Assembly: GCA_963805855.1 (NCBI GenBank)
Contig: CAWDVW010000005.1
Coordinates: 832,001 to 896,000 of the forward strand
From: Candidatus Dadabacteria bacterium
Lineage (GTDB): Bacteria > Desulfobacterota_D > UBA1144 > Nemesobacterales > CSP1-2
Direction of reading: 5' to 3'
Length of the DNA: 64,000 nt
Both the position numbers and the translations under genes were made by a program. Within the stretch, counting starts at the first letter, position 1, and each line of letters begins with the position of its first letter. Shown piece by piece: positions 19,343-52,648 of this stretch. The notes under the pieces are model-generated. The model worked only from the letters and a program-made list of their open reading frames with translations. It searched no databases and was not told the origin of the DNA.

Positions 19343-21496
19343 TTATTCATCGTAAAACTTTTTCCCCTGGCCCATATAATCTTGGAGGAGGTTGGATGGT
19401 ATAAAAAGTTGATCGTGTTTCGATGATAGAAACTCCAGCTTTTTGATCGTGTTTTCGATACCTAAGTTATCGATAAACTTGAAAGGCCCGCCCAGAAACG
19501 ATGGAAATCCAATCCCAATTACAGCACCAATGTCTCCGTCCCTTGGACTGCTTATAATCCCATCTTCAAGACATTTTACCGCTTCATTTATGATAGCGAA
19601 TGAGAGTCTCTCCTGTATCTCAAGCCTTGGGAAGTGTTCTCTAGATTTTCTAAAAGGTAGTAATTTGTATATGGATTTATTCACTATTTTTTTATCATTA
19701 TAGTATGAGTAGAAGGCTTTTCTGTTTTTTAACTGTTTATCCGTCCCTTCAAATAGGATATCAAGCTTTGAAGCAGCCTTAAATCTCTCCCCAAAAGCCT
19801 CATACATTGTGTTTGACCAGCCGATAACTTCATCGATTCCCATTTTGTCCATGAATATAAAGGGACCTTCCCGATATCCCAATTCAATCATTGCATTATC
19901 GATTTCCTCTAATGACCCTACTTCGCTGAGGAGGCGTATGGCTTCATTTATATACGCAAGTATTACCCTGTTGGTGAAAAAGCCTGTCCCCTCCTTTACT
20001 ACTATCGGAATCTTCCCAATGTGCTTAGAAAAATCAAGTACCGTAGCAATGGTAGAGTCCGAAGTATGTTGTGTTATAACAATTTCAGTTAGAGGGTTTT
20101 CGTACATTGGCAGTGAAAAATGAATTCCAACGATTTTATCCAATCGTTTCAGGCGATTGCATGCCTTATTTAATTGAGCCGCACTAACGTTCGAGGCAAT
20201 AACGCATCCCTCACTTATCACGGATTCAACCTCATCCAAGATATTTAGTTTCAGATCTGATTCATCTCGAGTAGTATCGAATACAATGTCTGCCCTTTTA
20301 AATCCTGAATAATCACTGGTACAACTAACCAATTCGAATCCGTTTTCCAATTCAAACTTTGGAGGTTCGTCCCTATTGTATTTATCTTTAAAGTATTCAT
20401 GACAGTCCTTTAGTGCCCTACCTATGCTTGATTCATCTTTATCCATCAGCCTAACTGTAAAACCATTATCGGCAGCCAGCGCTGCAAGAACAGAGCCAAT
20501 TTGCGCTGCACCAACTATACCGACCTTTCTAATCTTCTTTGGTTTGATACCATTTGCTCGAACGACGGGATCGTGTTTTATATCGTCCGAAGCAAGGGAC
20601 AGATGAATCAGATTGTGAGATACCTCACCAGAAGCAAGCTCGCCAAAGTAAACCGACTCGACATGTAGTCCTCTACTGAAGCTGGAGTTTAGTCCAACTT
20701 CCATTGCTTCAATTGACATTATCGGAGCCAGATTTCTATTGTTTGTCTTAACCAATGCCTTTTTTCTTTTCTTTTTAAGCAGAAGATTCCTTAGAACGGA
20801 ATTGCTATAATAAAACGTTTTTAGTCGGTTACTTGCTCGTGAACGCTTTGATCTAATCTTTCCCTTTATTAATTCGAGCGCTCGCATTTTCCCAATTTCC
20901 AATAATGCCTCATTGGGTACTATTTCGTCTATGATCCTAATTGCCCTGGCCTCCTGAGAATTTATGGTCTTTCCTGTGGTCATTAAATCAATAGCACACG
21001 ATGTACCTACTTGGAGTGGTAGTCTTTGCGTTCCACCTCCGCCGCATATTAAACCCAGCTTTATATCGGGGAATCCAAATAGGGTATTTGGCCCATCTGT
21101 CGCAATTCTATATTTGGATGCGAGGCATATTTCTAACCCTATACCAAAACAGCCTCCATTTATCGCTGCTAAAAATGGAATCCTGGATCTCTCAATTTTT
21201 TCTATTACTTCCTGTATTCTAAGGCTATAAGATCGACCTTCGTCGGCTGCCTTGAATTTAAAGAGCTCTCTGAGATCCAATCCTGAAATAAAATAATCCT
21301 GCTTCCCGCTTATGAGAACTATTGCTTTGGTTTCATTTCCTCCCTCTATCTTACTTTTTTCATTTTCTAGCTCGTTTAATAAGCTTTCGATTTCTATTAT
21401 ATGCTCCAGGGAAAGTCTGTTTTCCATCACATCGGGAGCTTCAATTGTCACTATCCCGATTTGTTTATCGTCTACTTCAAAGGAACATATTTTCAT
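19343..21496 (-). CDS. Fatty acid oxidation complex alpha subunit (FadJ-like), divergent
   Basis: Crotonase domain GGGGTQRLP, HAD domain, DGDIGAVIGIGFP. Confidence 0.85.
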   Translation of the reverse strand: MKICSFEVDDKQIGIVTIEAPDVMENRLSLEHIIEIESLLNELENEKSKIEGGNETKAIVLISGKQDYFISGLDLRELFKFKAADEGRSYSLRIQEVIEKIERSRIPFLAAINGGCFGIGLEICLASKYRIATDGPNTLFGFPDIKLGLICGGGGTQRLPLQVGTSCAIDLMTTGKTINSQEARAIRIIDEIVPNEALLEIGKMRALELIKGKIRSKRSRASNRLKTFYYSNSVLRNLLLKKKRKKALVKTNNRNLAPIMSIEAMEVGLNSSFSRGLHVESVYFGELASGEVSHNLIHLSLASDDIKHDPVVRANGIKPKKIRKVGIVGAAQIGSVLAALAADNGFTVRLMDKDESSIGRALKDCHEYFKDKYNRDEPPKFELENGFELVSCTSDYSGFKRADIVFDTTRDESDLKLNILDEVESVISEGCVIASNVSAAQLNKACNRLKRLDKIVGIHFSLPMYENPLTEIVITQHTSDSTIATVLDFSKHIGKIPIVVKEGTGFFTNRVILAYINEAIRLLSEVGSLEEIDNAMIELGYREGPFIFMDKMGIDEVIGWSNTMYEAFGERFKAASKLDILFEGTDKQLKNRKAFYSYYNDKKIVNKSIYKLLPFRKSREHFPRLEIQERLSFAIINEAVKCLEDGIISSPRDGDIGAVIGIGFPSFLGGPFKFIDNLGIENTIKKLEFLSSKHDQLFIPSNLLQDYMGQGKKFYDE

Positions 21497-21514
21497 TTAA
21501 CTTTCCTGACTTAA

Positions 21515-22822
21515 TTAATCTCTCTCGAGAATCATAGTGGCGCCTAGTCCACCGGCTGCACAGGATGTAGCCATACCGAAGTTTTTACCACGCCTCTTCA
21601 GCTCATTCAAAAGGGTGATAGTTAGCCTGATTCCCGTAGAACCAGACGGGTGACCAATTGCAATCGAGCCGCCCAGTACGTTTAGCTTATCAAGATCAAT
21701 TTCTCCAATGGGTGAGCTTTTCCCAAGTCTATCTGCAGCGAATTTTTTAGATGAAAATGCATTTAAGTTTGAAAGAACTTGGGATGCGGATGCCTCGTGC
21801 ATCTCTATTAAATCGACATCACGCAAACCAAGACCGGCCCTCTCCAAAGCGATCGCGGTTGCATAGACAGGACCCATGAGCACTTGATCTTTTGGAGATT
21901 GTGCAGAATAGGCGAATGACTTGATATACCCCAGCGGGTCGTATCCCATCTCTTTTGCCTTTTCCTCCGACATCATAAGTACTACACTCGCACCATCTGA
22001 AAGTGGCGAAGAATTGCCTTCTGTGACAGTACCATAAATTTTATCGGAAATCGGTCTTAGCTTCGCCAGATCTTCTATTCTTATATCTTTGCGAACTCCG
22101 TTGTCAAACCTCACTGCAGTTGAAAAATTGGGTGGGACAAACAGGCTAATGACTTCGTTTTGAAGCCTTGCATCCTCTGTAGCCTGAAAGGCAAGCCTGT
22201 GGCTGCGCAATGAAAATGCATCCTGATCATTACGGCTTATGTGGTTTTCTTTAGCGATTTGTTCGGCATATTTAGCCATGGATATCCCCCCGGATAATTC
22301 GGCGATCTCTCGGGGATTTGGGACAATATCTCGAATTCGCAGCTTAATTAATTGCTGAAGTTTTCTCATAGGGTTGCGGGTCTTCGCGTACTCTTTGAAT
22401 ATTTTTCTAGATCTCTTGTTATACAAAATCGGCAGGCTGGATATCGACTCTGTTCCTCCTGCCAAAACGACGTCATAATTCCCTAACATTATACCCTCGG
22501 CGGCGTTTGTAACGGCTCGGAATGATGATAAGCACGCGCTTGAGAGGGTATAAGCTGGAACATCGATTGGCATGCCAGCACCAAGTGCGATCTCTCTGGA
22601 AAGATTCAATGTTTTTATGATTGGTATTGCCGTACCAAAAATTACTTCTTCTATGCTTTCAGGATCTATTTCAGAGCGGTTTAAGAGTTCGGTTGTAACC
22701 TTTTTACCTAAATCTAAAGAAGATAGATTTTCTATTAGCGTACCAGCTTTTATGAACGGGGTCCTGAGTCCATAAACAATAGCCGCTCGCCTCCCGTTTC
22801 GGTAGAGCTTATTCAAACGCAA
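21515..22822 (-). CDS. fadI: Acetyl-CoA C-acyltransferase (FadI-like thiolase)
   Basis: GLRTPF, SACLSS, MHEA, GGSIAIGHP, CAAGGLG. Confidence 0.85.
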   Translation of the reverse strand: MRLNKLYRNGRRAAIVYGLRTPFIKAGTLIENLSSLDLGKKVTTELLNRSEIDPESIEEVIFGTAIPIIKTLNLSREIALGAGMPIDVPAYTLSSACLSSFRAVTNAAEGIMLGNYDVVLAGGTESISSLPILYNKRSRKIFKEYAKTRNPMRKLQQLIKLRIRDIVPNPREIAELSGGISMAKYAEQIAKENHISRNDQDAFSLRSHRLAFQATEDARLQNEVISLFVPPNFSTAVRFDNGVRKDIRIEDLAKLRPISDKIYGTVTEGNSSPLSDGASVVLMMSEEKAKEMGYDPLGYIKSFAYSAQSPKDQVLMGPVYATAIALERAGLGLRDVDLIEMHEASASQVLSNLNAFSSKKFAADRLGKSSPIGEIDLDKLNVLGGSIAIGHPSGSTGIRLTITLLNELKRRGKNFGMATSCAAGGLGATMILERD

Positions 22823-23059: not shown

Positions 23060-24364
23060 ATGAGAAATAATAGCGAGCTTGAACGAGCGAACCAAAGTGA
23101 ATCATTCAATACTGCGCTTTCAAACGGCTACAGAAGAGTCAGGAAATTTTCCGAAGAACTAACTACGCCCCTTGAAACTGAAGATTATGTTATTCAGTCG
23201 ATGCCGGAGGTTAGTCCAACCAAGTGGCACCTAGCTCATACCAGCTGGTTTTTTGAGACATTTGTTCTATCCGAAGTAACCTCCAATTACAGATCACCTC
23301 ATCCACAGTTTAATTTTCTTTTCAATTCATACTATGTTCAAGTCGGTGAACGGCATTGTCGTCCAAAGCGAGGGCTTATATCGAGGCCTACAGTTGCGGA
23401 GGTTTTCGAATACAGACGCCACGTCGATCAGAAAATTTTGGAATTTCTTGAAATTGCAAATGAGGAGCGACTGAGAGAGATCGCTCCGGTTATTGAAATA
23501 GGTCTTCATCATGAACAGCAACATCAGGAATTAATGCTGACCGATATAAAACATGTATTTTCTGAAAATCCGCTTCGACCTGCTTACATGGGTAATGAGA
23601 AGAAACCTTCGGATCGACTACTACCTGACATTTATTGGATAGAATATCCAGAGGGTGTGTATGCAATCGGTCACAATGGGGGAGGTTTTTCATTTGATAA
23701 TGAAACTCCGATGCATAAGGAATATGCTAATCCATTTAAACTTGCCTCTAGGCTTGTTACCAATCGCGAATATCTCGAGTTCATAGAGAATGGAGGTTAT
23801 GAAAGACCTGAGATTTGGCTTTCAGACGGATGGAGCACAGTTGAGGCAAATGACTGGAATGCCCCATTATATTGGGAGAAAAAGAACGGCAGTTGGCAGT
23901 ATTTTACACTTTCGGGTATTCGCAAAATAGCGCTAGATGAACCAGTATGTCATGTGAGTTACTACGAGGCTGATGCATATGCCCGCTGGGCCGGTGCACG
24001 GCTTCCTACTGAGTCGGAATGGGAAATTGCCGCATCTAATCTATCAATAAAAGGAAATTTTGTAGAAAATGAGAATTATCATCCTATGGTTATATCGGTA
24101 GAGACAAATAATCGAGAGCCTGAGCAGATGTTCGGAGACGTATGGGAATGGACACGAAGTCCATACGGACCCTACCCAGGTTACACGACACTTCCCGGCG
24201 CACTAGGTGAATACAACGGGAAATTCATGTGTAATCAGATCGTACTTCGTGGCGGTTCTTGTGCTACTTCCAGGTCGCATATTAGAAAAACATACAGAAA
24301 TTTCTTCCCACCAAACGCAAGATGGCAATTCATGGGAATCCGGCTTGCAAAAGATGCAAAATAA
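23060..24364 (+). CDS. egtB: Ergothioneine biosynthesis sulfoxide synthase
   Basis: SPTKWHLAHTSWFFE, FNSYY, HHEQQHQE, GEYNGKFM, YRNFF. Confidence 0.93.
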   Translation: MRNNSELERANQSESFNTALSNGYRRVRKFSEELTTPLETEDYVIQSMPEVSPTKWHLAHTSWFFETFVLSEVTSNYRSPHPQFNFLFNSYYVQVGERHCRPKRGLISRPTVAEVFEYRRHVDQKILEFLEIANEERLREIAPVIEIGLHHEQQHQELMLTDIKHVFSENPLRPAYMGNEKKPSDRLLPDIYWIEYPEGVYAIGHNGGGFSFDNETPMHKEYANPFKLASRLVTNREYLEFIENGGYERPEIWLSDGWSTVEANDWNAPLYWEKKNGSWQYFTLSGIRKIALDEPVCHVSYYEADAYARWAGARLPTESEWEIAASNLSIKGNFVENENYHPMVISVETNNREPEQMFGDVWEWTRSPYGPYPGYTTLPGALGEYNGKFMCNQIVLRGGSCATSRSHIRKTYRNFFPPNARWQFMGIRLAKDAK

Positions 24365-25316
24365 CCTTCATGAATTAAATAAAATTGATCCACAGGAAAA
24401 AGATCTTTTATCCGAAGTCATCGAAGGTCTAGGACAGCCGCAGAAGAAACTCCCTTCTAAGCTCTTTTACGATCAAAGAGGCTCTGAACTGTTTGATCAG
24501 ATTTGTAACCTCGACGAGTATTATCTGACTAGGACTGAGATGTGGATTATGAATCATTATATTGACGAAATTGCGGAATTGATCGGGAAGAAGTGTTTAC
24601 TGATAGAGTTGGGCAGCGGCAGCAGCACGAAGGTTCGATTGCTCCTAGACCATCTAATCGATCCCGTTGGTTATGTACCTATAGATATTTCTTCCGAGCA
24701 TTTGATTAAAGCTTCAGATTCACTCGCCGCGGATTACCCAAGTATTAAGATTATTCCCGTCTATGCCGATTACACACAGCCATTCGATTTCCCAGATATT
24801 ACATTTAGTTACTCCAAAAAGGTTGTGTACTACCCGGGCTCTACGATTGGAAATTTCACACCCAGATATGCGGCACGTTTCATCAGTCGCATTGCAAACA
24901 GGTCCGGCAAAGGGAGCGGGCTGCTTATCGGAATCGATCTAAAAAAGGATAAAGATACCTTAGAGGCTGCTTATAATGACAGGTATGGGGTTACCGCAGC
25001 ATTCAACCTGAATATTCTTGAAAGACTCAATAGAGAGCTTGGAGCAGACTTTGATACGAGCCAGTGGAAACACCGCGCTTTTTATAATGATGACGAAGGT
25101 AGAATAGAAATGCACTTGGTAAGCCTGGAGCATCAACGAGTAAATGTGAACGGAACGCCGATAAAATTGAAAAAAGATGAAACAATATTGACAGAATTTT
25201 CTTATAAATATACAAACGAAGAATTCGAAAATCTGGTCAGCAATAGTTTTGAATTAGTTAAGGTCTGGACAGACCAAGATGAAAAGTTCAGCATACAATA
25301 TCTAATGGCTCGTTAA
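24354..25316 (+). CDS. egtD: L-histidine N-alpha-methyltransferase
   Basis: KLFYDQRGSELF, EYYLTRTE, ELGSG, PGSTIGNF, AYND-GVTAAFN; ATG at 24354 overlaps the egtB end. Confidence 0.93.
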   Translation: MQNNLHELNKIDPQEKDLLSEVIEGLGQPQKKLPSKLFYDQRGSELFDQICNLDEYYLTRTEMWIMNHYIDEIAELIGKKCLLIELGSGSSTKVRLLLDHLIDPVGYVPIDISSEHLIKASDSLAADYPSIKIIPVYADYTQPFDFPDITFSYSKKVVYYPGSTIGNFTPRYAARFISRIANRSGKGSGLLIGIDLKKDKDTLEAAYNDRYGVTAAFNLNILERLNRELGADFDTSQWKHRAFYNDDEGRIEMHLVSLEHQRVNVNGTPIKLKKDETILTEFSYKYTNEEFENLVSNSFELVKVWTDQDEKFSIQYLMAR

Positions 25317-33791: not shown

Positions 33792-36700
33792 TCAATTCTT
33801 CTTTATTCTCGGCTTCTTTGCTTTTGATCTTTTTGCTTTTGTAATAAGCCTATTCAGCTCGACTAGGTCAGGATTAAGCAACTCTTTTACACGGTCACTA
33901 TTGACTCCCGCTACAATAATATCGCCAATTTCAGTATTGACCTCGTCATATATGCCCAAAGCTTTCATACCCTTCGTTTGCTTCTGATTATCGTCGGTGG
34001 GGTTAACATAATGTACCGAATCACTTTTATAACGGTGAATCAAAAACAAGTGGATTAATGTCATTAAACGTTTCTTACGAAAATCCTCATCAAATGTATT
34101 TTGATCTCTAACAGAAAGAATATTTTTGCCCCTGAGATCCTGTATGGATCCAAACACAGCATTAGCCACTTTATTTTTCGACTCATCCAAAACACTCAAT
34201 TCCAATAAATCCGAGCCTGCTCTGTGCGGACGTAGTTCAACACGCAATGGCCCTCTAATCTTGTAGTATTCCGCCCAAAGCTCAAGCCAACCTTCCAGAA
34301 GTTTGGGTGGAACCTCTGTCTGGACCAGATGCTGATACTGTGTGGATCCCTTTCCCATGGCCTTTGTCGTTGCCGTACGCCCGGAAGTAGCCATAAGGGC
34401 ACCATCGGCACGGGGGCCACCAACGTAGGTTTGTGGTGTTTTATAGGGTGAATCAACCAACCTGAACTTTCTTTGTAATCGGGCCAGTGCAAGCATTCCA
34501 TCTTCCAGCAGAGCCCTTGAAAATTCTTCAGCAGCCAGTCCGTCTATTTGATGACCTCCGTAGGTGATAAAGTTAAAGACAAACCCGAGTTTTCCCAGCT
34601 CTTTGGGAAAGTTCGCCATTTCTTCATCGGTCATTCCCGTTGTGTCCCAGTTAAATGAAGGTGACAAGTTATAGGCCAACATCTTATCTGGATATACCCT
34701 GTGGATAGCATCAGAAAATTCCTTCGCATCAGCCAGATCAGCCGTTTTTGTCTCCATCCAGAGAATGTCGGCAAAGGGGGCTACAGCAATTGATTTTGCT
34801 ATCGCATATCCGACTCCGCCTTGGATCTGATAATAACCCTCGGGCGTTCTGGACAATTCACAATCCCACGAAGGGTCTATGCCCATCGACCTGGCCTTTT
34901 CACGGGCTTCATGTAATGAAACATTCTTAGCAAATTCGAGCCATTGGTTAATTGTCAAATCGTGTTGTCTTCCTTCTTCGATCTGGAATTCCATCAAATC
35001 TGCTACTGCTTCCCCAAATGTCTTAAGCCCTGACTCGACTTCCCATGTCTCGACGAACTTGGTCGCGACATTATCCAACGGCTTGGTGATGCTCCTTTCC
35101 CTGCCATCCTTTAAAGCTCGTACGTTTTCATCTATGTATGACATTAATCCCACTTGCTCAAACCACTTGTAAGCCTCTTCATATTCGAAATCGGACATCC
35201 TGTATAGCAAGTGACCATTAACATCCTTTATTCCCTTCTCATTAAAAGCCTTCAAAATTGCAAGATAACAATCCTTATAACCGGGTAGATTTGTTTTAGT
35301 AGCACCCAAAATAAAGGGATGATCCCGTTCATCACCCCTTCCGTCCAGTAATGCGGCCGCTTCAGCGTCGGTCCGAGCAACGATGATTCCAGGCACCTTC
35401 ATAACATCAAGTTGAAATCGTGCGGCATTCAGCCTTTTGATTTGTTCATCAACAGGCACGAGAGCCTTACCGCCCTGATGCCCGCATTTCTTTGTGCCCG
35501 GTTTTTGATCTTCGATGTGGTAACCTGCGACACCCGCTTCTACAAATCTCCTGACCAGGTTTCTGACATGGGCGTCACCACCGTGTCCTGTATCGGCATC
35601 TGCTATTATAAAAGGTCTGTAATCAAATTTTGGAGCAGTTTTACGTTCCTTGTCTGTCATTCTAGATCTCATGAATTTCTGATTCTTGTCTGCAGAAAGA
35701 AGGGCTCGAACAAGAGTAGCTGCTTCATCCGGCACCTGACTGAGTGGGTAACTGGCTAAATCGGGACCGGGATCCTCAGTTGTCGACCCTTTAGCGGAAG
35801 TTGCCCAACCTCCCAGATAAATCCCCTTTATACCTGCCCGCTTCAGCATCACTGCTTGGCCAGGAGAATATGGGCCAAATGTTGTAATCTGCTCCGCTTT
35901 TGAGAACAATTCCCTTAAAAGATTATAGAATTCTTCTGATGCCTTCCGTGCAATAGGATAGTCAGTTTCGATCGTTCCGCGCTGTTGCACCACCTGGCGG
36001 GCAGAGTAGAGACGAGTAATGCCCTTGAATCGGTGGCTGCTAACCCATTTTTTTGTTTCCAGAACCTCTTTTTCAAATGATTCCATTTCGTCTTCTGAAA
36101 TGGTCTCAGTTTTTCTGGTGGGGATAAAATCTAAATTCTCAGTAATCCTTGTCCCATCCTCTTTAAATGTATCCATGTACTGTCTAATTCTCCTTTTAGC
36201 TTCATATAAATCATGATTATTTAGATTAATATTCAAAAGGTCAATATACCAGGGTGCTTTGACATCATCTAAAACGTAGGTTTCAACAATCTCTCTGGCA
36301 ATTGGTAGGGTTGTTCCTTTTGAATCGTCGTGAACATCTTTATCTTTTGCATGCAGAAGTTTTTCGTATTCTTCAGCCAGTAACCTTCGAAATATGTCGG
36401 CAGTAAAAACGTCTCCCGCTTTTGACCCCGTTTCCGGATCATCCTCGTTTAGTTTCGCACCCTTGTGGACCCACTCCCACAATATGCTAAGACGAATTTC
36501 TCCTGTGGCCATATCTTCCATCAGATACAAGATGTCATCATTATTGAAAAAGTCGGCTGGCTTTAGCGCCGCTGCCTGAAATCCCTGACCAAACGCATTT
36601 CCATATTGCAAACCAACGCTCAAAAGATTTCGAGCTCCCCTAATCGTTCTGGGCGCCGGTTCGAGAAGCGTTAGACCATCAGCGTCCTCCTGAGTATAGG

Positions 36701-38051
36701 TTAGAGGGGGGAAAACTCTACCGAGCTGGTTGTCCTCTCCAATCCTTTCCCAGACCGGTCGAATAATGTGAACCATCCTCCAATGTGCTACCCATTTACC
36801 ACTTGCACCCTCTTTCTGCTCACGCATAGAACCCTCGACGGCTTTCTTCATACCGCTTGTAACACCCTCTTCCGAACCTACAGGAATGTTGGGTTCCATT
36901 CCACCCTGCCAAAGCGCAAAATTTCCGTTAATATCGGGCGTGTTTACAGCCCTACGGACCCTATCTTCGTAATTTCTCATGTAACCATAAGTCATTGTAA
37001 TAGATTCGATGTTGGGATTGATAAAATCTTTATCCCAGGTCATAGCATCAGCGACGCTGTTAATGTAGTCCCATCTTCCGGTATTGAATCCGACGAAATG
37101 TCTGTCTAAGGCGGCCCTAATTCCCATAAGCTGAAATGTTGCCTCAAGTTGTTCAACAAGAACATAGACCTTGATTGTGCCAACCGGGAGGTCAAGATGT
37201 TCTTCAAGAGCTGATATAATTTCATTCCAAAACGCCGCCTCCTCAGCCGTCTGGATCTTAGGCAGATACAATACTATGGAGGAACCCGCCTTCATTAAAT
37301 TCTTATGGTTGTTCACAACATACAGTGTCATATCGACAATTGAAGCCGAAAGAGCCACACCATTTTCATCACGGATATGTCTATCGTCTAAGTGTAATCC
37401 CCGGCAGCGGAATATCTTTGTTGTAAAATCTAATTGAGTGTTCCAATCTTTTATGATCTTTTTGCCGAAAAACCCTGATGACCATTCGTTCATCTCCCTT
37501 GCAACCTTCTCAGCCACTCGCAAAAAGATTGGGTCTTTTTGTATTGCCAATTTCAAATTTCTTTGATTGTCTAACGACATCGTGTTAATCTGACCAACGG
37601 CGTCTTCCCCATCAAACATCCAGCCATCCGCACCCGAAAGCAATCCATAGGCAACATTCCTTATGCTTTTTTCAATCGGCGAGTTCGGCTTGGCAGCCGG
37701 CCCCGTCCCCTGAATCCACTGTCGCTGCAAATCTTTTGGAATTTCCGGACCGACGAACTTCCCGTCTCTTGCGTCTTGCACCTTTATGTTGGTCCGAGGA
37801 ATATAGTCATTCGGATCCATAAACCTGATTCTGTGTCTATTCCGAGTTCTTTCCGCCCTTCTTTCGATTCTTTTTGCCATGACCATTTTTTGATCCTCAT
37901 TGAATCTAGCCAATGATGCCAAAGCGGTCATAACCTCAGGGGTGTATACATCAGGGTAGGAATTCTCGAGATTGTCTCGAATCTCTAACTCGCCATACCC
38001 ACTGATGACCTTAAAGGATCGATCATTTGATTTACGAACGATAGTCATCAC
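33792..38051 (-). CDS. Bifunctional malate synthase-isocitrate lyase with ICL2-type C-terminal domain
   Basis: MS motifs [31 protein letters not shown] motifs [37 protein letters not shown]. Confidence 0.9.
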
Positions 38052-38303
38052 CAGTTCTCCTCACTCGTCTTGTATGATTTTTATGCTTTGAATAATAAGG
38101 CCAACAATTATACATATTATGCGTCTTATTTCCAAATAATTGTGTTATTAAGTGTATGTTATGAGAGATTTGTTGGCAAGCAGCAAATCTTTGACGTTGA
38201 CTCATTAATACTATTTTCAGTTGGAACTAGTAGTTATAGATAAAATCGCATATAATAGTTATGCAAATTGTAAACTTAGAAACTGTTGTATAAGGAGATA
38301 AGA

Positions 38304-38660
38304 ATGAATATTTATGTGGGAAATTTATCATATGAGGTCAGCGAAGAGGACTTACGATCGGCTTTCGAAGAATTTGGGCAGGTCTTGTCCGCCTCTATCA
38401 TAAAAGATAAGTACACTGGAGAATCAAAGGGATTTGGATTCGTCGAGATGCCAACTCTGGAGGAGGCTCAAGCTGCTATCAGTGCTCTAAATGGGAAAGA
38501 GCTGAAAGGAAGGGCAATTAACGTGAATGAAGCCCGCCCACGCACAGAAAAACGTGTTGGTGACCGAGGAGGAAGAGGAGGCTTTGGCAAGGGAGGAGGA
38601 GGAAGGGGAGGCTTTGGCAAAGGGGGAGGAGGCAGAGGAGGTGGCCGTAGTAGATACTAA
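38304..38660 (+). CDS. RRM RNA-binding protein with RGG-rich tail
   Basis: IYVGNL (RNP2), KGFGFVEM (RNP1); RBS aaggag. Confidence 0.95.
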   Translation: MNIYVGNLSYEVSEEDLRSAFEEFGQVLSASIIKDKYTGESKGFGFVEMPTLEEAQAAISALNGKELKGRAINVNEARPRTEKRVGDRGGRGGFGKGGGGRGGFGKGGGGRGGGRSRY

Positions 38661-41825: not shown

Positions 41826-42794
41826 TCATAATTTTGAACCTGGCTCGTAATCTAATCTCTCCAACTCATAATCGAGTTCTGTCTTGAGCCCTAGCTTGTG
41901 AAGAGCGTCGTTTGCTTCAGCAAGGCTTCCACATTCAGAGATGGTCCTAGCGGGTTTCGATATCTTCTCAAAGACAACTCTAGGCGACAAATAGAAGGTA
42001 ATAGTGGAAATAACCGATAGAGATACACTTCGCCTGCCGCTTCGGATGGTAGTCCTGTTAAATATTCCCTTTGCAGCTTCTACAGGCAGGCGGCTAGCTT
42101 CGGTAGGCACAATTTCAACTACTTTCTCGAGCTCTTTCAGTGTATCATGTGTGATACCCCAGCTTCCAAGAAGACCACCCTCCCTCGCTATTTTTCTGAT
42201 TGATTTTTCCAATTCGGGCATGGTGAGTTCTCCGTCGCAACCAAATCCAAAAACTCCCATCACCGTAGGCATTCTTTTTTCTAGCTCTGAAAGTGAGGCC
42301 GTCATTATTGCATCCGCCAGTGGACTCATAATCCCCGGCTCATTTCCAAATGCAATTGCGTCGCCACCAACATCAATCCCGACTATCAAATCAGCGTCTA
42401 ACTTATCAACAGCATCCAAGAGTCCCTTAACAACTTCTTTCGCACCACAGTTAATATCAACCAACAAAGTCTCTCTCCCGTAGAATTCCGCTATCCAAGA
42501 CTCTGCGAACCTCACACCAGTGCTCGTGGTTGTCTTTTGGTTTGTATACCAAACTGTATCGTTTATCTTCCTGGCATTTAGAGTTTCATGGAAGTTCCTC
42601 GGCCCCGGAACCGGATCTATAACAGATCTTTCCCAAGAAAGTCCGCCCATAACATTTTCAACTCCGAAGTTTTCTAGCAGTTTGGCGGTAGGAATCGTTC
42701 CAACAATATCTCCGCCACCACCTATACCTAGCAGTATAGCCCTCTTAGAGTTTTTGAATATATTTTCTAGTGTCCTAAATTTGTTCATTCTCAT
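41826..42794 (-). CDS. DUF1152 family protein
   Basis: GIGGGGD, DVGGD, SPLADA, GCDGEL. Confidence 0.8.
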   Translation of the reverse strand: MRMNKFRTLENIFKNSKRAILLGIGGGGDIVGTIPTAKLLENFGVENVMGGLSWERSVIDPVPGPRNFHETLNARKINDTVWYTNQKTTTSTGVRFAESWIAEFYGRETLLVDINCGAKEVVKGLLDAVDKLDADLIVGIDVGGDAIAFGNEPGIMSPLADAIMTASLSELEKRMPTVMGVFGFGCDGELTMPELEKSIRKIAREGGLLGSWGITHDTLKELEKVVEIVPTEASRLPVEAAKGIFNRTTIRSGRRSVSLSVISTITFYLSPRVVFEKISKPARTISECGSLAEANDALHKLGLKTELDYELERLDYEPGSKL

Positions 42795-48560: not shown

Positions 48561-48977
48561 ATGCAAGTAAGCAGAACATTAGATTATGCTGTGAGGTCGC
48601 TAGCCTATATGGGGAAAAACCCTGTATTAACCTCAAGCATGAAAGAGATATCGCAAAATCAACACATACCGATTAATTACCTTGCTAAGATCATGCGGAG
48701 GCTTGTCAAAAGGGGTCTTATAAGATCGATGGTCGGGCCGGATGGAGGTTATGTTCTACGAAAATCTCCACGAGAGATTAACCTTAGAGAGGTATATGAG
48801 GCTATCGAAGGTGAATTGAGGATTATCGATTGTATGGATAAGGCTGAGATCTGTGCACTTCATCAGTATTGTCCGCAACTCCCGGTATGGGACAGGGTTA
48901 GATTATCTATGATAAAGATACTTGAGGACACGACACTCGACGATATGTTAAAGCAGATTGGAACTGATTTGAGTTGA
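48561..48977 (+). CDS. Rrf2-family regulator with three Cys
   Basis: DYAVR, GPDGGY, EAIEG, C-x6-C-x5-C. Confidence 0.92.
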   Translation: MQVSRTLDYAVRSLAYMGKNPVLTSSMKEISQNQHIPINYLAKIMRRLVKRGLIRSMVGPDGGYVLRKSPREINLREVYEAIEGELRIIDCMDKAEICALHQYCPQLPVWDRVRLSMIKILEDTTLDDMLKQIGTDLS

Positions 48978-49014
48978 AAAAAATATTGATATACTTAAAC
49001 TTGGAGGCTTTTAA

Positions 49015-50451
49015 ATGAGCGTAGATCTGGAACGGTTGTCAAAACAAGAATACAAATACGGATTCGTTACGAACATCGAGCAGGAAATTGCACCTAAGGG
49101 TTTGAACGAAGATACCATTCGAATGATCTCGGCTAAGAAGAATGAGCCTGAATGGTTGTTGGAGTGGCGTCTAAAAGCTTACAGGCATTGGCTTACAATG
49201 AAGGAGCCAAAATGGCAAAATGTTCATTATCCTCCCATCGATTACAACGATATTAGCTATTATGCCGCGCCTAAACAGGCAAATAAGGCTAAGAGTCTCG
49301 ATGATATAGACCCAGAATTAAGGGCAACCTATCAGAAACTCGGAATTCCTCTCGAAGAACAGATGATGCTTGCAGGTGTGGCCGTAGATGCAGTCTTTGA
49401 CAGTGTTTCGCTGATTACAACATTCAAGGAAAAACTTGCTGAATTAAATATAATATTTTGTTCTATTTCAGACGCTGTGCAGGAATATCCAGAATTGGTA
49501 AAGAAATACATGGGGTTTGTAGTACCCAATAACGACAACTACTTTGCCGCTCTCAACTCTGCCGTGTTTACGGATGGTTCCTTCGTTTACGTTCCAAAGG
49601 GCGTTCGCTGTCCGATGGAATTGTCTACGTATTTCCGTATAAACGCAGAGAATACAGGTCAGTTTGAAAGAACGCTGATCATTGGGGAAGAAGGCAGCTA
49701 CGTCAGCTATCTGGAGGGATGTACTGCGCCAAAACGCGATGAAAACCAGTTACATGCGGCTGTAGTGGAACTCATAGCTCACACTGACGCTACAATCAAG
49801 TATTCTACGATACAGAATTGGTATCCCGGTGACAAGGATGGTAAAGGGGGTATTTACAACTTTGTCACAAAACGGGGAAGATGCCTAGGTAGAAATTCTC
49901 ATATTTCCTGGACCCAAGTCGAGACTGGTTCTGCAATAACATGGAAATATCCGAGCTGTATTCTCGAGGGTGACAATTCGGTCGGTGAATTTTATTCTGT
50001 TGCATTAACTAATAATCGCCAGCAGGCTGATACAGGAACTAAGATGATACATATTGGTAAGAATACCAGTAGCACAATCGTCTCAAAGGGTATATCTGCT
50101 GGCCACGGTCAGAACACATACCGAGGGCTCGTCCAGATTGGTAAAAATGCTACCGGAGCGCGTAACTATACCCAGTGTGACTCAATGCTCATAGGAGATA
50201 AGTGCGGAGCCCACACATTTCCTTACATCGAGGTTAAGAACTCTACGGCCCGGATGGAACATGAAGCTAGTACTTCTAAGATTGGTGACGACCAGATTTT
50301 TTATTGCCAACAAAGGGGTCTTTCCGCGGAGGACGCTGTGTCACTCATAGTCAATGGTTTTTGCAAGAAGGTATTTCGAGAACTGCCATTCGAATTTGCT
50401 GTAGAGGCAGAACGACTATTGAGTGTCAGTCTTGAGGGAAGCGTCGGATAG
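49015..50451 (+). CDS. sufB: Fe-S cluster assembly protein SufB
   Basis: [37 protein letters not shown]. Confidence 0.97.
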
Positions 50452-50522
50452 ACAATCCATACTAAACCTATTACTCATAGTTACGAAAACTACTATTTAT
50501 AAGATAACTATTCGGAGGAATT

Positions 50523-51293
50523 ATGCTTGAGATAAAGAATTTACATGTGAGCATTGAAAACCAAGAGATTCTTAAGGGATTGAATCTATTGATTAATCCC
50601 GGCGAGGTACATTCGATAATGGGACCGAACGGTTCAGGAAAGAGCACTCTTGCTCAGGTACTTGCAGGCCGCGATACGTATGAAGTTACAGAAGGTGAAA
50701 TTCTCTACGAAGGTAGAAACCTGCTGGACATACTTCCTGAGGAGAGGGCGCGAGAGGGTATTTTCATGGCTTTCCAATATCCTGTAGAAATACCGGGCGT
50801 TGCAAATACATACTTCCTCCGGGAAGCGTTGAATGCCATAAGAAAGCACAAGGGACTGGAACCACTTAAGCACGTTGAATTTGTCAAGATGGTAAAACAG
50901 AAGATGAAAGCCCTGGATATGGATGAAAACCTTCTACAACGCTCCGTTAATGAGGGTTTTTCCGGGGGTGAGAAGAAGCGGAATGAGATCTTTCAATTGC
51001 AGGTTCTGGAGCCCAGGCTTGCCATATTAGACGAGACTGATTCGGGGCTAGATATTGATGCCCTTAAGATCGTCGCCAAGGGTGTGAACATGATGCGAAC
51101 AGATGAACGAGCCTTTTTGATAATTACTCATTACCAGAGACTCCTCAACTACATCATTACTGATTTTGTCCACGTCCTCGTAGATGGGAGGATAGTAAAA
51201 TCAGGTGGAAAAGAATTGGCACTAGAGCTAGAAGACAAAGGGTACGCGCGGGTGGGCGATGAATTGACTGACGCCAACGTGGCTCAAAATTAA
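50523..51293 (+). CDS. sufC: Fe-S assembly ATPase SufC
   Basis: GPNGSGKST, FSGGEKKRNE, DETDSGLDIDAL. Confidence 0.97.
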   Translation: MLEIKNLHVSIENQEILKGLNLLINPGEVHSIMGPNGSGKSTLAQVLAGRDTYEVTEGEILYEGRNLLDILPEERAREGIFMAFQYPVEIPGVANTYFLREALNAIRKHKGLEPLKHVEFVKMVKQKMKALDMDENLLQRSVNEGFSGGEKKRNEIFQLQVLEPRLAILDETDSGLDIDALKIVAKGVNMMRTDERAFLIITHYQRLLNYIITDFVHVLVDGRIVKSGGKELALELEDKGYARVGDELTDANVAQN

Positions 51294-51307
51294 CAGGGTG
51301 ATCGAAA

Positions 51308-52648
51308 ATGGAAATTGAAATGCAGGATATTAATAGCTATCTTGAAGGCTTTTTTAAACACCAGGAGTATTCTCCCGGTAGAGAGATTAAATGGTTTAGG
51401 GAAAATCGAGAAAAAGCCATACATGCATTTAAGAAATTGGGGTTTCCTACAATCCATGACGAGGATTGGAGGTTTACAAGCCTGGCTCCAATTGAACGGA
51501 CTGTCTTCAGATTAATGCCGAATGGGAAACCAAAGCTAACAAGGAATGATATAGCGCCATTTGTCTTTTCTGATTCATTACGAAATCAACTAGTCTTTAT
51601 CGATGGCAGATTTTCGGTTGAACTTTCTTCCCAGGATACTAATGGTGGAGTTAGAATATCAAATCTTACAAAAGCACTGATTGATTATCAGGATTTGTTG
51701 AGCGAGCATCTCACTCGCTATGCTGACTTCGAACATGAAGCTTTGACAGCACTGAATACCGCCTTTATGGAAGATGGCGCATTCGTATTGATACCAAAAG
51801 GTGTCTTGCTTTCTGAACCAATCCATTTGTTATACATATCAACGATCAATGATGTTCCCTCTCTTTCAAATCCCCGTAACTTGATAATTCTTGAAGATAA
51901 CAGTCAGGCTAATATTATCGAACATTACGTCTCACTGGGTAGCAATGTCTATTTTTCTAACGTCGTTACAGAGGTTGTTATTGGTGAGAACAGTACGCTT
52001 GATCATTATATGATTGAGATAGAAAGCGCAAAGGCCTATAACGTTTCTACTCTGCGGGTTGAGCAAAAGCGTAATAGCAGCCTAAATTCCCACTCTTTGC
52101 TGCTTGGTGGATCTCTTGTAAGGAATAATGTTCATCCGGTGCTTGCTGGAGAGGGCTGCCATTCATTTATAAACGGTTTATTCATGTCTAGAGATAGACA
52201 ACACATGGATAATTACATGAAAGTAGAACATGCTAGTCCGAATTGCGACAGTCGACAACTTTATAACGGAGTCTTAGATGGCAAGTCGAGGGGGGTATTC
52301 CACGGCCGAATTATTGTGCATAAAGATGCCCAGAAGACGGATGCCAAACAGACAAATAGAAATCTTCTACTTTCCGATTCAGCACAGATCGATACTAAAC
52401 CCCAACTTGAAATTTATGCCGACGATGTGAAATGCACCCACGGTGCTACGATTGGACAGCTAGATGAAAATGCCATTTTCTATATTCGATCCCGTGGCTT
52501 ATCAGAAGAATCTGCTCGTGAAATGCTACTGCATGCTTTCGCAAGCAAGAGCCTCGAGAGTATGAAAGTAAAAGAAATAAGAGATTATGTTGAAAGGCTT
52601 GTGACAGAGTGGTTTGCGAAAGGGAATTTAGTTCAATTATCAGGCTAG
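51308..52648 (+). CDS. sufD: Fe-S assembly protein SufD
   Basis: EDWRFT, KPQLEIYADDVKCTHGAT. Confidence 0.95.
   Translation: MEIEMQDINSYLEGFFKHQEYSPGREIKWFRENREKAIHAFKKLGFPTIHDEDWRFTSLAPIERTVFRLMPNGKPKLTRNDIAPFVFSDSLRNQLVFIDGRFSVELSSQDTNGGVRISNLTKALIDYQDLLSEHLTRYADFEHEALTALNTAFMEDGAFVLIPKGVLLSEPIHLLYISTINDVPSLSNPRNLIILEDNSQANIIEHYVSLGSNVYFSNVVTEVVIGENSTLDHYMIEIESAKAYNVSTLRVEQKRNSSLNSHSLLLGGSLVRNNVHPVLAGEGCHSFINGLFMSRDRQHMDNYMKVEHASPNCDSRQLYNGVLDGKSRGVFHGRIIVHKDAQKTDAKQTNRNLLLSDSAQIDTKPQLEIYADDVKCTHGATIGQLDENAIFYIRSRGLSEESAREMLLHAFASKSLESMKVKEIRDYVERLVTEWFAKGNLVQLSG

Follow-up and report, generated by a model that had tools for sequence, protein, structure and literature searches.

A malate synthase tethered to an ICL2-type isocitrate lyase in a Dadabacteria genome: a probable bifunctional glyoxylate-shunt enzyme with fused and split relatives

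Can one bacterial polypeptide carry the whole glyoxylate shunt, and could acetyl-CoA, a substrate of its second enzyme, switch on the first? The question is raised by a gene in a 64,000-nucleotide (nt) stretch of the genome of a Candidatus Dadabacteria bacterium (assembly GCA_963805855.1, contig CAWDVW010000005.1, positions 832,001 to 896,000; hereafter the window), in which a single open reading frame (ORF) on the minus strand encodes a malate synthase (MS) followed by an isocitrate lyase (ICL). The reading that we favour, with a probability of about 0.75, is that of a bifunctional glyoxylate-shunt enzyme in which a divergent MS is tethered by a 13-residue linker to a complete ICL2, with activation by acetyl-CoA and co-localisation of the two activities presumed from the comparison with known enzymes. 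The fused protein is probably bifunctional, as judged from its sequence, and belongs to a large but uncharacterised family.

The gene is one ORF of 1419 codons plus a stop, with a GTG start and no internal stops, and the uninterrupted 1419-residue frame proposed in the initial annotation is thereby borne out.

33792..38051, minus strand: the whole fused gene (ORF translation; homologue lengths)

An ATG at 38046-38048, one codon inside the GTG, appears to be the likelier start, because the closest homologue among the matches listed, P0002, is 1418 residues long. Since close relatives have two genes at the junction, in frame and with a single stop codon between them in seven sampled loci, one may suspect that the long ORF is an artefact of sequencing or assembly, in which a stop codon was lost or neighbouring aceB-like and ICL2 genes were chimerically joined. 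The segment 35500-36700 of the window was detected in 24 metagenome runs (21 studies of soil, mangrove, marsh and salt marsh), and 12 of these runs contained half or more of the sampled words. Four of the 24, namely three DNA runs from different studies and one RNA library, were compared along it. No indel or joint was seen in the contigs of the three DNA runs; the whole segment was spanned by one 2561-nt contig, and contigs of another run crossed the linker. A 151-nt contig of the RNA library, at 35991-36141, crossed the MS-ICL junction with zero differences to the window. The RNA-library contigs (X23) covered 9 of 30 bins, which is presence in an RNA library and does not prove transcription. 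In the linker region, strain variants of one salt-marsh run comprised S652L and L640V (window 36097 and 36134) and five synonymous changes, none of which makes a stop. Support at 36090-36130, a point that had been flagged for checking, is thus given by contigs that cross the linker without indel or stop. In addition, the ORF is uninterrupted in 34 of 120 genomes of the phylum, all 120 database matches listed are fused and come from many sources, and the linker motif xP...EDE is kept across two families. These observations largely refute an artefact and confirm the 1419-residue fused ORF as a genuine gene.

The initial annotation had divided the product into MS, ICL and an ICL2-type regulatory domain, and both a Pfam scan and alignments to structure entries agree with this three-module anatomy. 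The MS module and four of its active-site positions are as follows, with E. coli malate synthase A (MSA; 3cuz) and B. anthracis MS (3cux) as alignment references.

36126..38051, minus strand: MS module, residues 1-642, ending ...RITENLDF (Pfam PF01274/PF20659; 3cux 1.1e-45; 3cuz 1.4e-41; TIGR01344 241.5 bits)
37407..37409, minus strand: R215, aligned with catalytic Arg166 of E. coli MSA (invariant in 35 rows of the alignment)
37152..37154, minus strand: E300, aligned with Glu250 of E. coli MSA (alignment; invariant in 35 rows)
37068..37070, minus strand: D328 in GRWDY, aligned with Asp278 of E. coli MSA (alignment; invariant in 35 rows)
36513..36515, minus strand: D513 in LMEDMAT, aligned with catalytic Asp447 of E. 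coli MSA (alignment; invariant in 35 rows)

The MS motifs noticed earlier at the N-terminus were recovered both by Pfam and by the alignments to the E. coli and B. anthracis enzymes. The TIM-barrel domain PF01274 matched residues 213-442 (1.2e-46; 159.2 bits against a gathering cut-off of 26.4) and the MS C-terminal domain PF20659 matched residues 507-571 (32.7 bits against 23.1), and the MSG models gave mere 20-24 bits on the fused protein. TIGR01344, the malate synthase A equivalog, scored 241.5 bits over residues 35-595 and stayed under its cut-off of 594.5, and for this reason the MS half is assigned to a divergent MS subfamily rather than to canonical MSA. E250 and D278 of E. coli MSA, the counterparts of E300 and D328, are residues that we take to be Mg ligands. 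The four positions R215, E300, D328 and D513 are invariant across 35 fused, split and stand-alone homologues, and R166 and D447, with which R215 and D513 align, are described as the catalytic pair of E. coli MSA (PMC11347633). Mean column identity in the MS half is 67%, with 77-80% identity between families, and this half looks active.

One might still regard the MS half as a catalytically dead accessory domain that binds acetyl-CoA, so that the protein is merely an ICL; a score under the MSA equivalog cut-off and a length about 110 residues greater than that of MSA would fit such a domain. It would be hard to reconcile with the invariance of two catalytic and two presumed Mg-binding positions, with the high identity within and across families, with the finding of no second malate synthase in the genome, or with the stand-alone genes that encode this MS type (P0242, L007). 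We consider a dead MS very unlikely. The stand-alone gene L007:2492-4369, from a Deferribacteres-labelled metagenome-assembled genome (MAG), encodes a 625-residue MS of this subfamily that is 79% identical, and no ICL2 was seen within 2.5 kb downstream of it.

The remainder of the protein corresponds to ICL2 of Mycobacterium tuberculosis (Mtb).

34383..36086, minus strand: ICL2 catalytic domain, residues 656-1223, equivalent to Mtb 15-582 (6edw alignment; TIGR01346)
35478..35492, minus strand: KKCGH catalytic loop, residues 854-858 (invariant in 75 rows)
34845..35297, minus strand: helical insert ('unique helical substructure'), residues 919-1069, equivalent to Mtb 278-428 (ungapped alignment; limits as given in PMC13102942)
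34329..34382, minus strand: flexible linker before the C-terminal domain, residues 1224-1241, equivalent to Mtb 583-600 (92-96% mean pairwise identity)
33831..34328, minus strand: ICL2 C-terminal domain, residues 1242-1407, GNAT-like, acyl-CoA-binding in Mtb (6edw, 8g8k; 16 invariant residues)
33795..33830, minus strand: basic C-terminal tail, past the end of the Mtb alignment

The Pfam ICL family matched residues 662-927 and a second stretch (2.4e-130), and TIGR01346, the isocitrate lyase equivalog, scored 446.3 bits, above its cut-off of 275.9. Residues 656-1405 aligned with chain positions 35-784 of Mtb ICL2 (6edw) in one ungapped 749-residue stretch (1165-1166 bits), and the entry for the isolated C-terminal domain, 8g8k, matched residues 1246-1405 (2.2e-57). 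The intact KKCGH reported before lies exactly at its coordinates, and the tail of about 170 residues that had been likened to the Mtb domain does align to both entries. The ICL half is accordingly classed as a complete ICL2-type (Group III) isocitrate lyase with helical insert, flexible linker and GNAT-like C-terminal domain.

In Mtb ICL2, the GNAT-like C-terminal domain is reported to bind acetyl-CoA or propionyl-CoA, upon which catalytic efficiency rises about 50-fold (PMC6788997, PMC13102942), and the inactive state is described as being held by E385 and E387 of the insert contacting R608 and R699 of the C-terminal domain (PMC13102942). In the fused protein, E385 and R699 of this latch are kept as E1026 and R1340, and T711, D713 and T718, which flank the CoA pocket in Mtb, are kept as T1352, D1354 and T1359, which are the majority residues among 75 relatives. 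Sixteen residues of the C-terminal domain, R1340 among them, are invariant in the 75 rows. Mean pairwise identity of this domain is 0.61 in 34 fused rows and 0.62 in 41 non-fused rows, so that the regulatory domain shows no sign of decay once MS is attached.

The genome is 3.11 Mb in size and 93.8% complete. Its only other matches to PF00463 or PF01274 are a 294-residue PrpB-like ORF (266 bits, cut-off 354) and a 379-residue CitE-like ORF, and because of this the fusion is taken to be the genome's only ICL and its only strong MS. In E. coli the same two reactions are carried out by separate proteins, AceB (MSA), whose active-site residues align with those of the fusion, and AceA, and the branch point is controlled by phosphorylation of isocitrate dehydrogenase by AceK. 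In contrast, a search of the fusion's genome, at the completeness given above, yielded no AceK and three genes of the Iso_dh family; control of the branch point at ICL is therefore plausible.

The mechanism that we propose would operate as follows. If the ICL half behaves like its homologue Mtb ICL2, it would form a tetrameric core, and its C-terminal domains would bind acetyl-CoA or propionyl-CoA and thereby raise ICL activity. The MS half would condense the glyoxylate coming from ICL with acetyl-CoA. The two enzymes would form a co-localised 1:1 pair in which the co-substrate of MS would also switch on the production of glyoxylate, and the reactive aldehyde would not be produced unless its sink was supplied. 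From these comparisons we infer that both activities are present, and likewise the oligomeric state, activation by acetyl-CoA and any channelling; a channelling of glyoxylate and an ICL switched on only by acetyl-CoA are plausible.

Several points weigh against this bifunctional, acetyl-CoA-activated enzyme. A tether of 13 residues suggests proximity rather than a sealed tunnel, and the MS half falls short of the MSA equivalog, as noted above. Two of the four Mtb latch residues are replaced (E387 by R1028 and R608 by P1249), as is Y716 near the CoA pocket (by K1357). In the literature collection searched, no assay of a bacterial MS-ICL fusion was found. Moreover, the unrooted tree described below does not tell fusion from fission, that is, gains from losses.

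The replaced residues bear on another possibility, namely that both activities are real and the C-terminal domain is not an acetyl-CoA on-switch, the enzyme being constitutive or responding to another ligand (e.g., succinyl-CoA), or the domain serving mainly in assembly. Half of the auto-inhibitory latch is lost in fused and unfused relatives alike, and there are MS-to-ICL fusions of Omnitrophota, with the same MS type, that have no C-terminal domain at all. The equal constraint on the domain in fused and unfused proteins, its 16 invariant residues including the counterpart of Mtb R699, the retention of T1352, D1354 and T1359 by the pocket, and the 92-96% identity of the flexible linker point the other way. 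We judge the loss of the switch unlikely, with a sizeable minority share of the probability, and retain acetyl-CoA activation as the preferred reading.

How, then, did the two modules become joined? The junction contains two elements.

36087..36125, minus strand: inter-module linker, residues 643-655, 13 amino acids (position and approximate length match the stop, spacer and Shine-Dalgarno of split relatives)
36084..36086, minus strand: M656 (in 24 split relatives, the ICL2 gene stands alone and its ATG start falls at this alignment position)

The 40 loci fetched came from 16 of the 33 fused genomes besides the window's own, from every one of the 10 genomes with a read-through match (see below) and from 14 of about 35 genomes with two matches, so that the junction was compared in 17 fused loci (window included) and 24 split loci. 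Split MS genes mostly end with '...RITENLDF' plus 2-4 residues (9 at most), and the MS stop is followed by an A/T-rich spacer of about 30-48 nt with AGGAGA and then by the ATG of ICL2; in the seven loci mentioned above, a single stop codon alone parts the MS frame from this ATG. The linker of the fusion is acidic, and its conserved 'EDE' comes from purine-rich triplets at the position of the Shine-Dalgarno of split relatives. These sequences are best explained by an origin of the fusion at the gene boundary of an MS-ICL2 operon, with the linker in the place of the former stop, spacer and Shine-Dalgarno and M656 as the former ICL2 start. Linkers fall into several classes: 13 residues with 'xP...EDE' (families f1 and f8, and P0020/22), 8 residues with 'TA...DE' (a clade of Acidobacteriota and Planctomycetota), 13 residues with '...GDD' (P0053/55) and 17 residues (G078).

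A former start raises the possibility of two products, the full fusion and a free ICL2 made by internal initiation at M656. The position is still ATG in 5 of the 17 fused loci of the phylum and is M or V in 16 of 34 fused rows, and a purine-rich GAGGA or GAAGA lies 6-9 nt upstream in several loci. Most fused f8 genes, however, have CTC or CTT (Leu) there, and the window's GAAGACGAA upstream of M656 is a weak Shine-Dalgarno. A second product seems rather improbable, and we continue to regard the fusion as a single polypeptide.

A search with the complete protein gave 748 proteins at E<=1e-3 among 8000 scored candidates. All of the 120 matches listed are 1366-1428 residues long, contain MS and ICL domains and are 68-97% identical; their source names include Thermodesulfobacteriota, isolates of Planctomycetes (Aeoliella, Bythopirellula), Acidobacteriota, Holophagae and Thermoanaerobaculales. 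The MS-ICL2 fusion is not rare; it is common in environmental bacteria, with hundreds of database proteins. Unfused ICL2-type proteins of about 750-775 residues are abundant as well. All 120 of these listed were 68-82% identical. NCBI gives some of them the name 'isocitrate lyase ICL2', and the sources are Acidobacteria, Dadabacteria, Calditrichaceae, Anaerolineae and Gammaproteobacteria.

Within the phylum, 87 of 120 genomes gave a match. The 34 genomes with an uninterrupted full-length match all belong to families f1 and f8, and in four more a stop-free match runs across the junction and is broken off by a frameshift or by the end of a contig. In families f3, f4, f6 and f7, the MS gene lies immediately upstream of the ICL2 gene, the two genes of such sister families being some 45 nt apart, and ten genomes (f3, f6, f7) gave one continuous match through in-frame stops. 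In one genome (G076:C2:121630-125867), the fused gene is represented on a single contig by a pair of matches, residues 2-731 and 728-1413, that overlap; this suggests a frameshift within the ICL domain, by either pseudogene formation or sequencing error.

Fused and split forms are intermingled in trees. In a FastTree tree of 76 ICL2 parts, the fused label had to change 5 times, and starred branches forced 4 of these changes. A tree of concatenated MS and ICL2 was built from 50 rows and needed 3 fused/split changes; the linker columns were omitted from it, as were the 17 rows that lack an MS partner, the long-branch P0243 and 9 rows of f7 that were near-duplicates. An approximately unbiased (AU) test, selected after the tree was seen, rejected a topology in which a single branch sets all fused rows apart from the others (delta lnL 57.8, p=0.0088). 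It seems that the fused and split states were interchanged several times among relatives, with at least 3 changes, and the relic start codons together with the differing linker classes favour several independent fusions.

Two further arrangements of the same enzymes were seen. In two Terriglobia MAGs (L009:2378-6568 and L011:2396-6614), an ICL2 that is 80-81% identical to the ICL2 half of the window's protein is preceded by another MS of canonical length (557-563 residues), just 26-28% identical to the window's MS; an MS next to ICL2 is thus also seen with a second type of MS. Giant bacterial proteins of 1950-4828 residues (P0245, P0246, P0248-P0251, P0257, P0264 and P0367) combine the present MS type (33-54% identity) with ICL in either order. 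Their extra domains include PEPCK (P0246), TIM with class-II aldolase and GAPDH (P0264), aminotransferase V (P0250) and HEAT repeats (P0245); by name, two of the giants belong to Candidatus Omnitrophota and one to Chlamydiota. P0248 and P0257 are collinear with the window's protein through the MS-ICL junction and are without the ICL2 C-terminal domain. These giants could be mega-fusions that unite the glyoxylate shunt with gluconeogenesis, or they could result from the merging of gene calls.

A broader and more tentative proposal is that the acetyl-CoA switch of ICL2 evolved within a two-enzyme unit with MS. Across many phyla, ICL2 would be placed directly behind MS or fused to it, whereby the co-substrate of MS would gate the production of glyoxylate; the junction would act as a one-codon toggle that was used repeatedly, and the stand-alone ICL2 of mycobacteria, the Omnitrophota mega-fusions and perhaps the eukaryotic MS-ICL would be offshoots of the MS-linked lineage. 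Taken as a whole, we hold this possible and somewhat doubtful.

Among known systems, Mtb ICL2 (the long form of AceA; PDB 6edw, 6ee1, 9obo) resembles residues 656-1405 without a gap, at about two-thirds identity as judged from the bit score, and shares KKCGH, the helical insert, the flexible linker and the GNAT-like C-terminal domain. The fused protein differs in its 642-residue N-terminal MS, in not keeping E387 and R608, and in being the only ICL of its genome. A bacterial single gene for both shunt enzymes, compared here by literature description only, is found in Anaeromyxobacter: an MS/ICL fusion was listed in 2006 and its ICL grouped with the mycobacterial and eukaryote-type insert-bearing ICLs (PMC1630690), and that of Anaeromyxobacter sp. 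Fw109-5 was tabulated in 2016 as a fusion around a reactive metabolite (PMC4921024). In their passages on these fusions, neither paper discusses a regulatory domain. No fused protein named Anaeromyxobacter was present among the 120 matches listed for a Myxococcota-labelled ICL2 query. With these earlier papers and the wide presence in databases, the novelty claimed for the fusion in the initial annotation was overrated.

The MS-ICL of Euglena gracilis and Acanthamoeba, likewise compared by description, has the same module order, MS then ICL (PMC8219788, PMC13632651), and is unlike the present protein in being eukaryotic and mitochondrial; the source of the euglenophyte gene is called unknown in PMC8219788. 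ICL-1 of Caenorhabditis elegans also holds both shunt enzymes in one polypeptide. Its order is reversed, its ICL is of proteobacterial type and its MS of Bacillus type according to PMC1630690, and an ICL2 C-terminal domain is not described for it.

The surroundings of the gene bear on its expression.

38286-38660, plus strand: gene for a small RRM-domain RNA-binding protein, divergent from the fusion with a common 234-bp upstream region
38107..38135, minus strand: TTGGAA-17-TATAAT, a promoter-like site by consensus match alone, some 55 nt before the start

Because of the divergent RRM gene upstream, the promoter-like site and a 580-bp gap downstream, after which a CNNM/CorC gene follows, the fused gene looks monocistronic. 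The count of promoter-like sites in the region was 8 against a shuffle mean of 10.9, i.e., no excess, and the scan for terminator-like sites downstream of the stop gave none. The fadB/J-like and thiolase genes at 19343-22822 lie 11 kb off, beyond plus-strand genes, and are not co-transcribed with the fusion.

Elsewhere in the window, an EgtB-like ORF (DinB_2 and FGE-sulfatase) followed by an EgtD-like histidine methyltransferase ORF at 23060-25316 (plus strand) presumably serves ergothioneine synthesis. A gene for an Rrf2-family regulator is followed by those for SufB, a SufC-like ABC ATPase and SufD at 48561-52648 (plus strand), and a DUF1152 protein (1.4e-90) is encoded at 41826-42794 (minus strand) amid several small ORFs without a Pfam match.

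The fusion of MS with ICL is thus of a kind already in print; what the present analysis usefully adds is the link between the acyl-CoA sensor of ICL2 and MS, and the toggle between fused and split states. In the literature collection searched, we found no paper that links a bacterial MS-ICL fusion with an ICL2 regulatory domain. It is new that a fused ORF stands against adjacent MS and ICL2 genes in sister families of the same phylum, with the junction aligned at M656, and, as far as the homologues indicate, that ICL2-type enzymes are widespread and not confined to mycobacteria. Group III ICLs are stated as seen only in mycobacteria in PMC13102942 (2026), and MS/ICL fusion is stated as reported only from Euglena and Acanthamoeba in PMC8219788 (2021); our findings correct both statements of range. 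The natural pairs of fused and split enzymes in sister families offer a ready-made test of what fusion brings in channelling, stoichiometry or regulation, and their source organisms are non-pathogenic and include the cultured Planctomycetes Aeoliella straminimaris and Bythopirellula polymerisocia. For the family, the arrangement would give a functional rationale to the puzzling regulator of ICL2: acetyl-CoA, the activator of the tuberculosis enzyme, serves as co-substrate to the enzyme that follows in the pathway, and many environmental bacteria have this following enzyme physically joined to ICL2 or encode it directly upstream.

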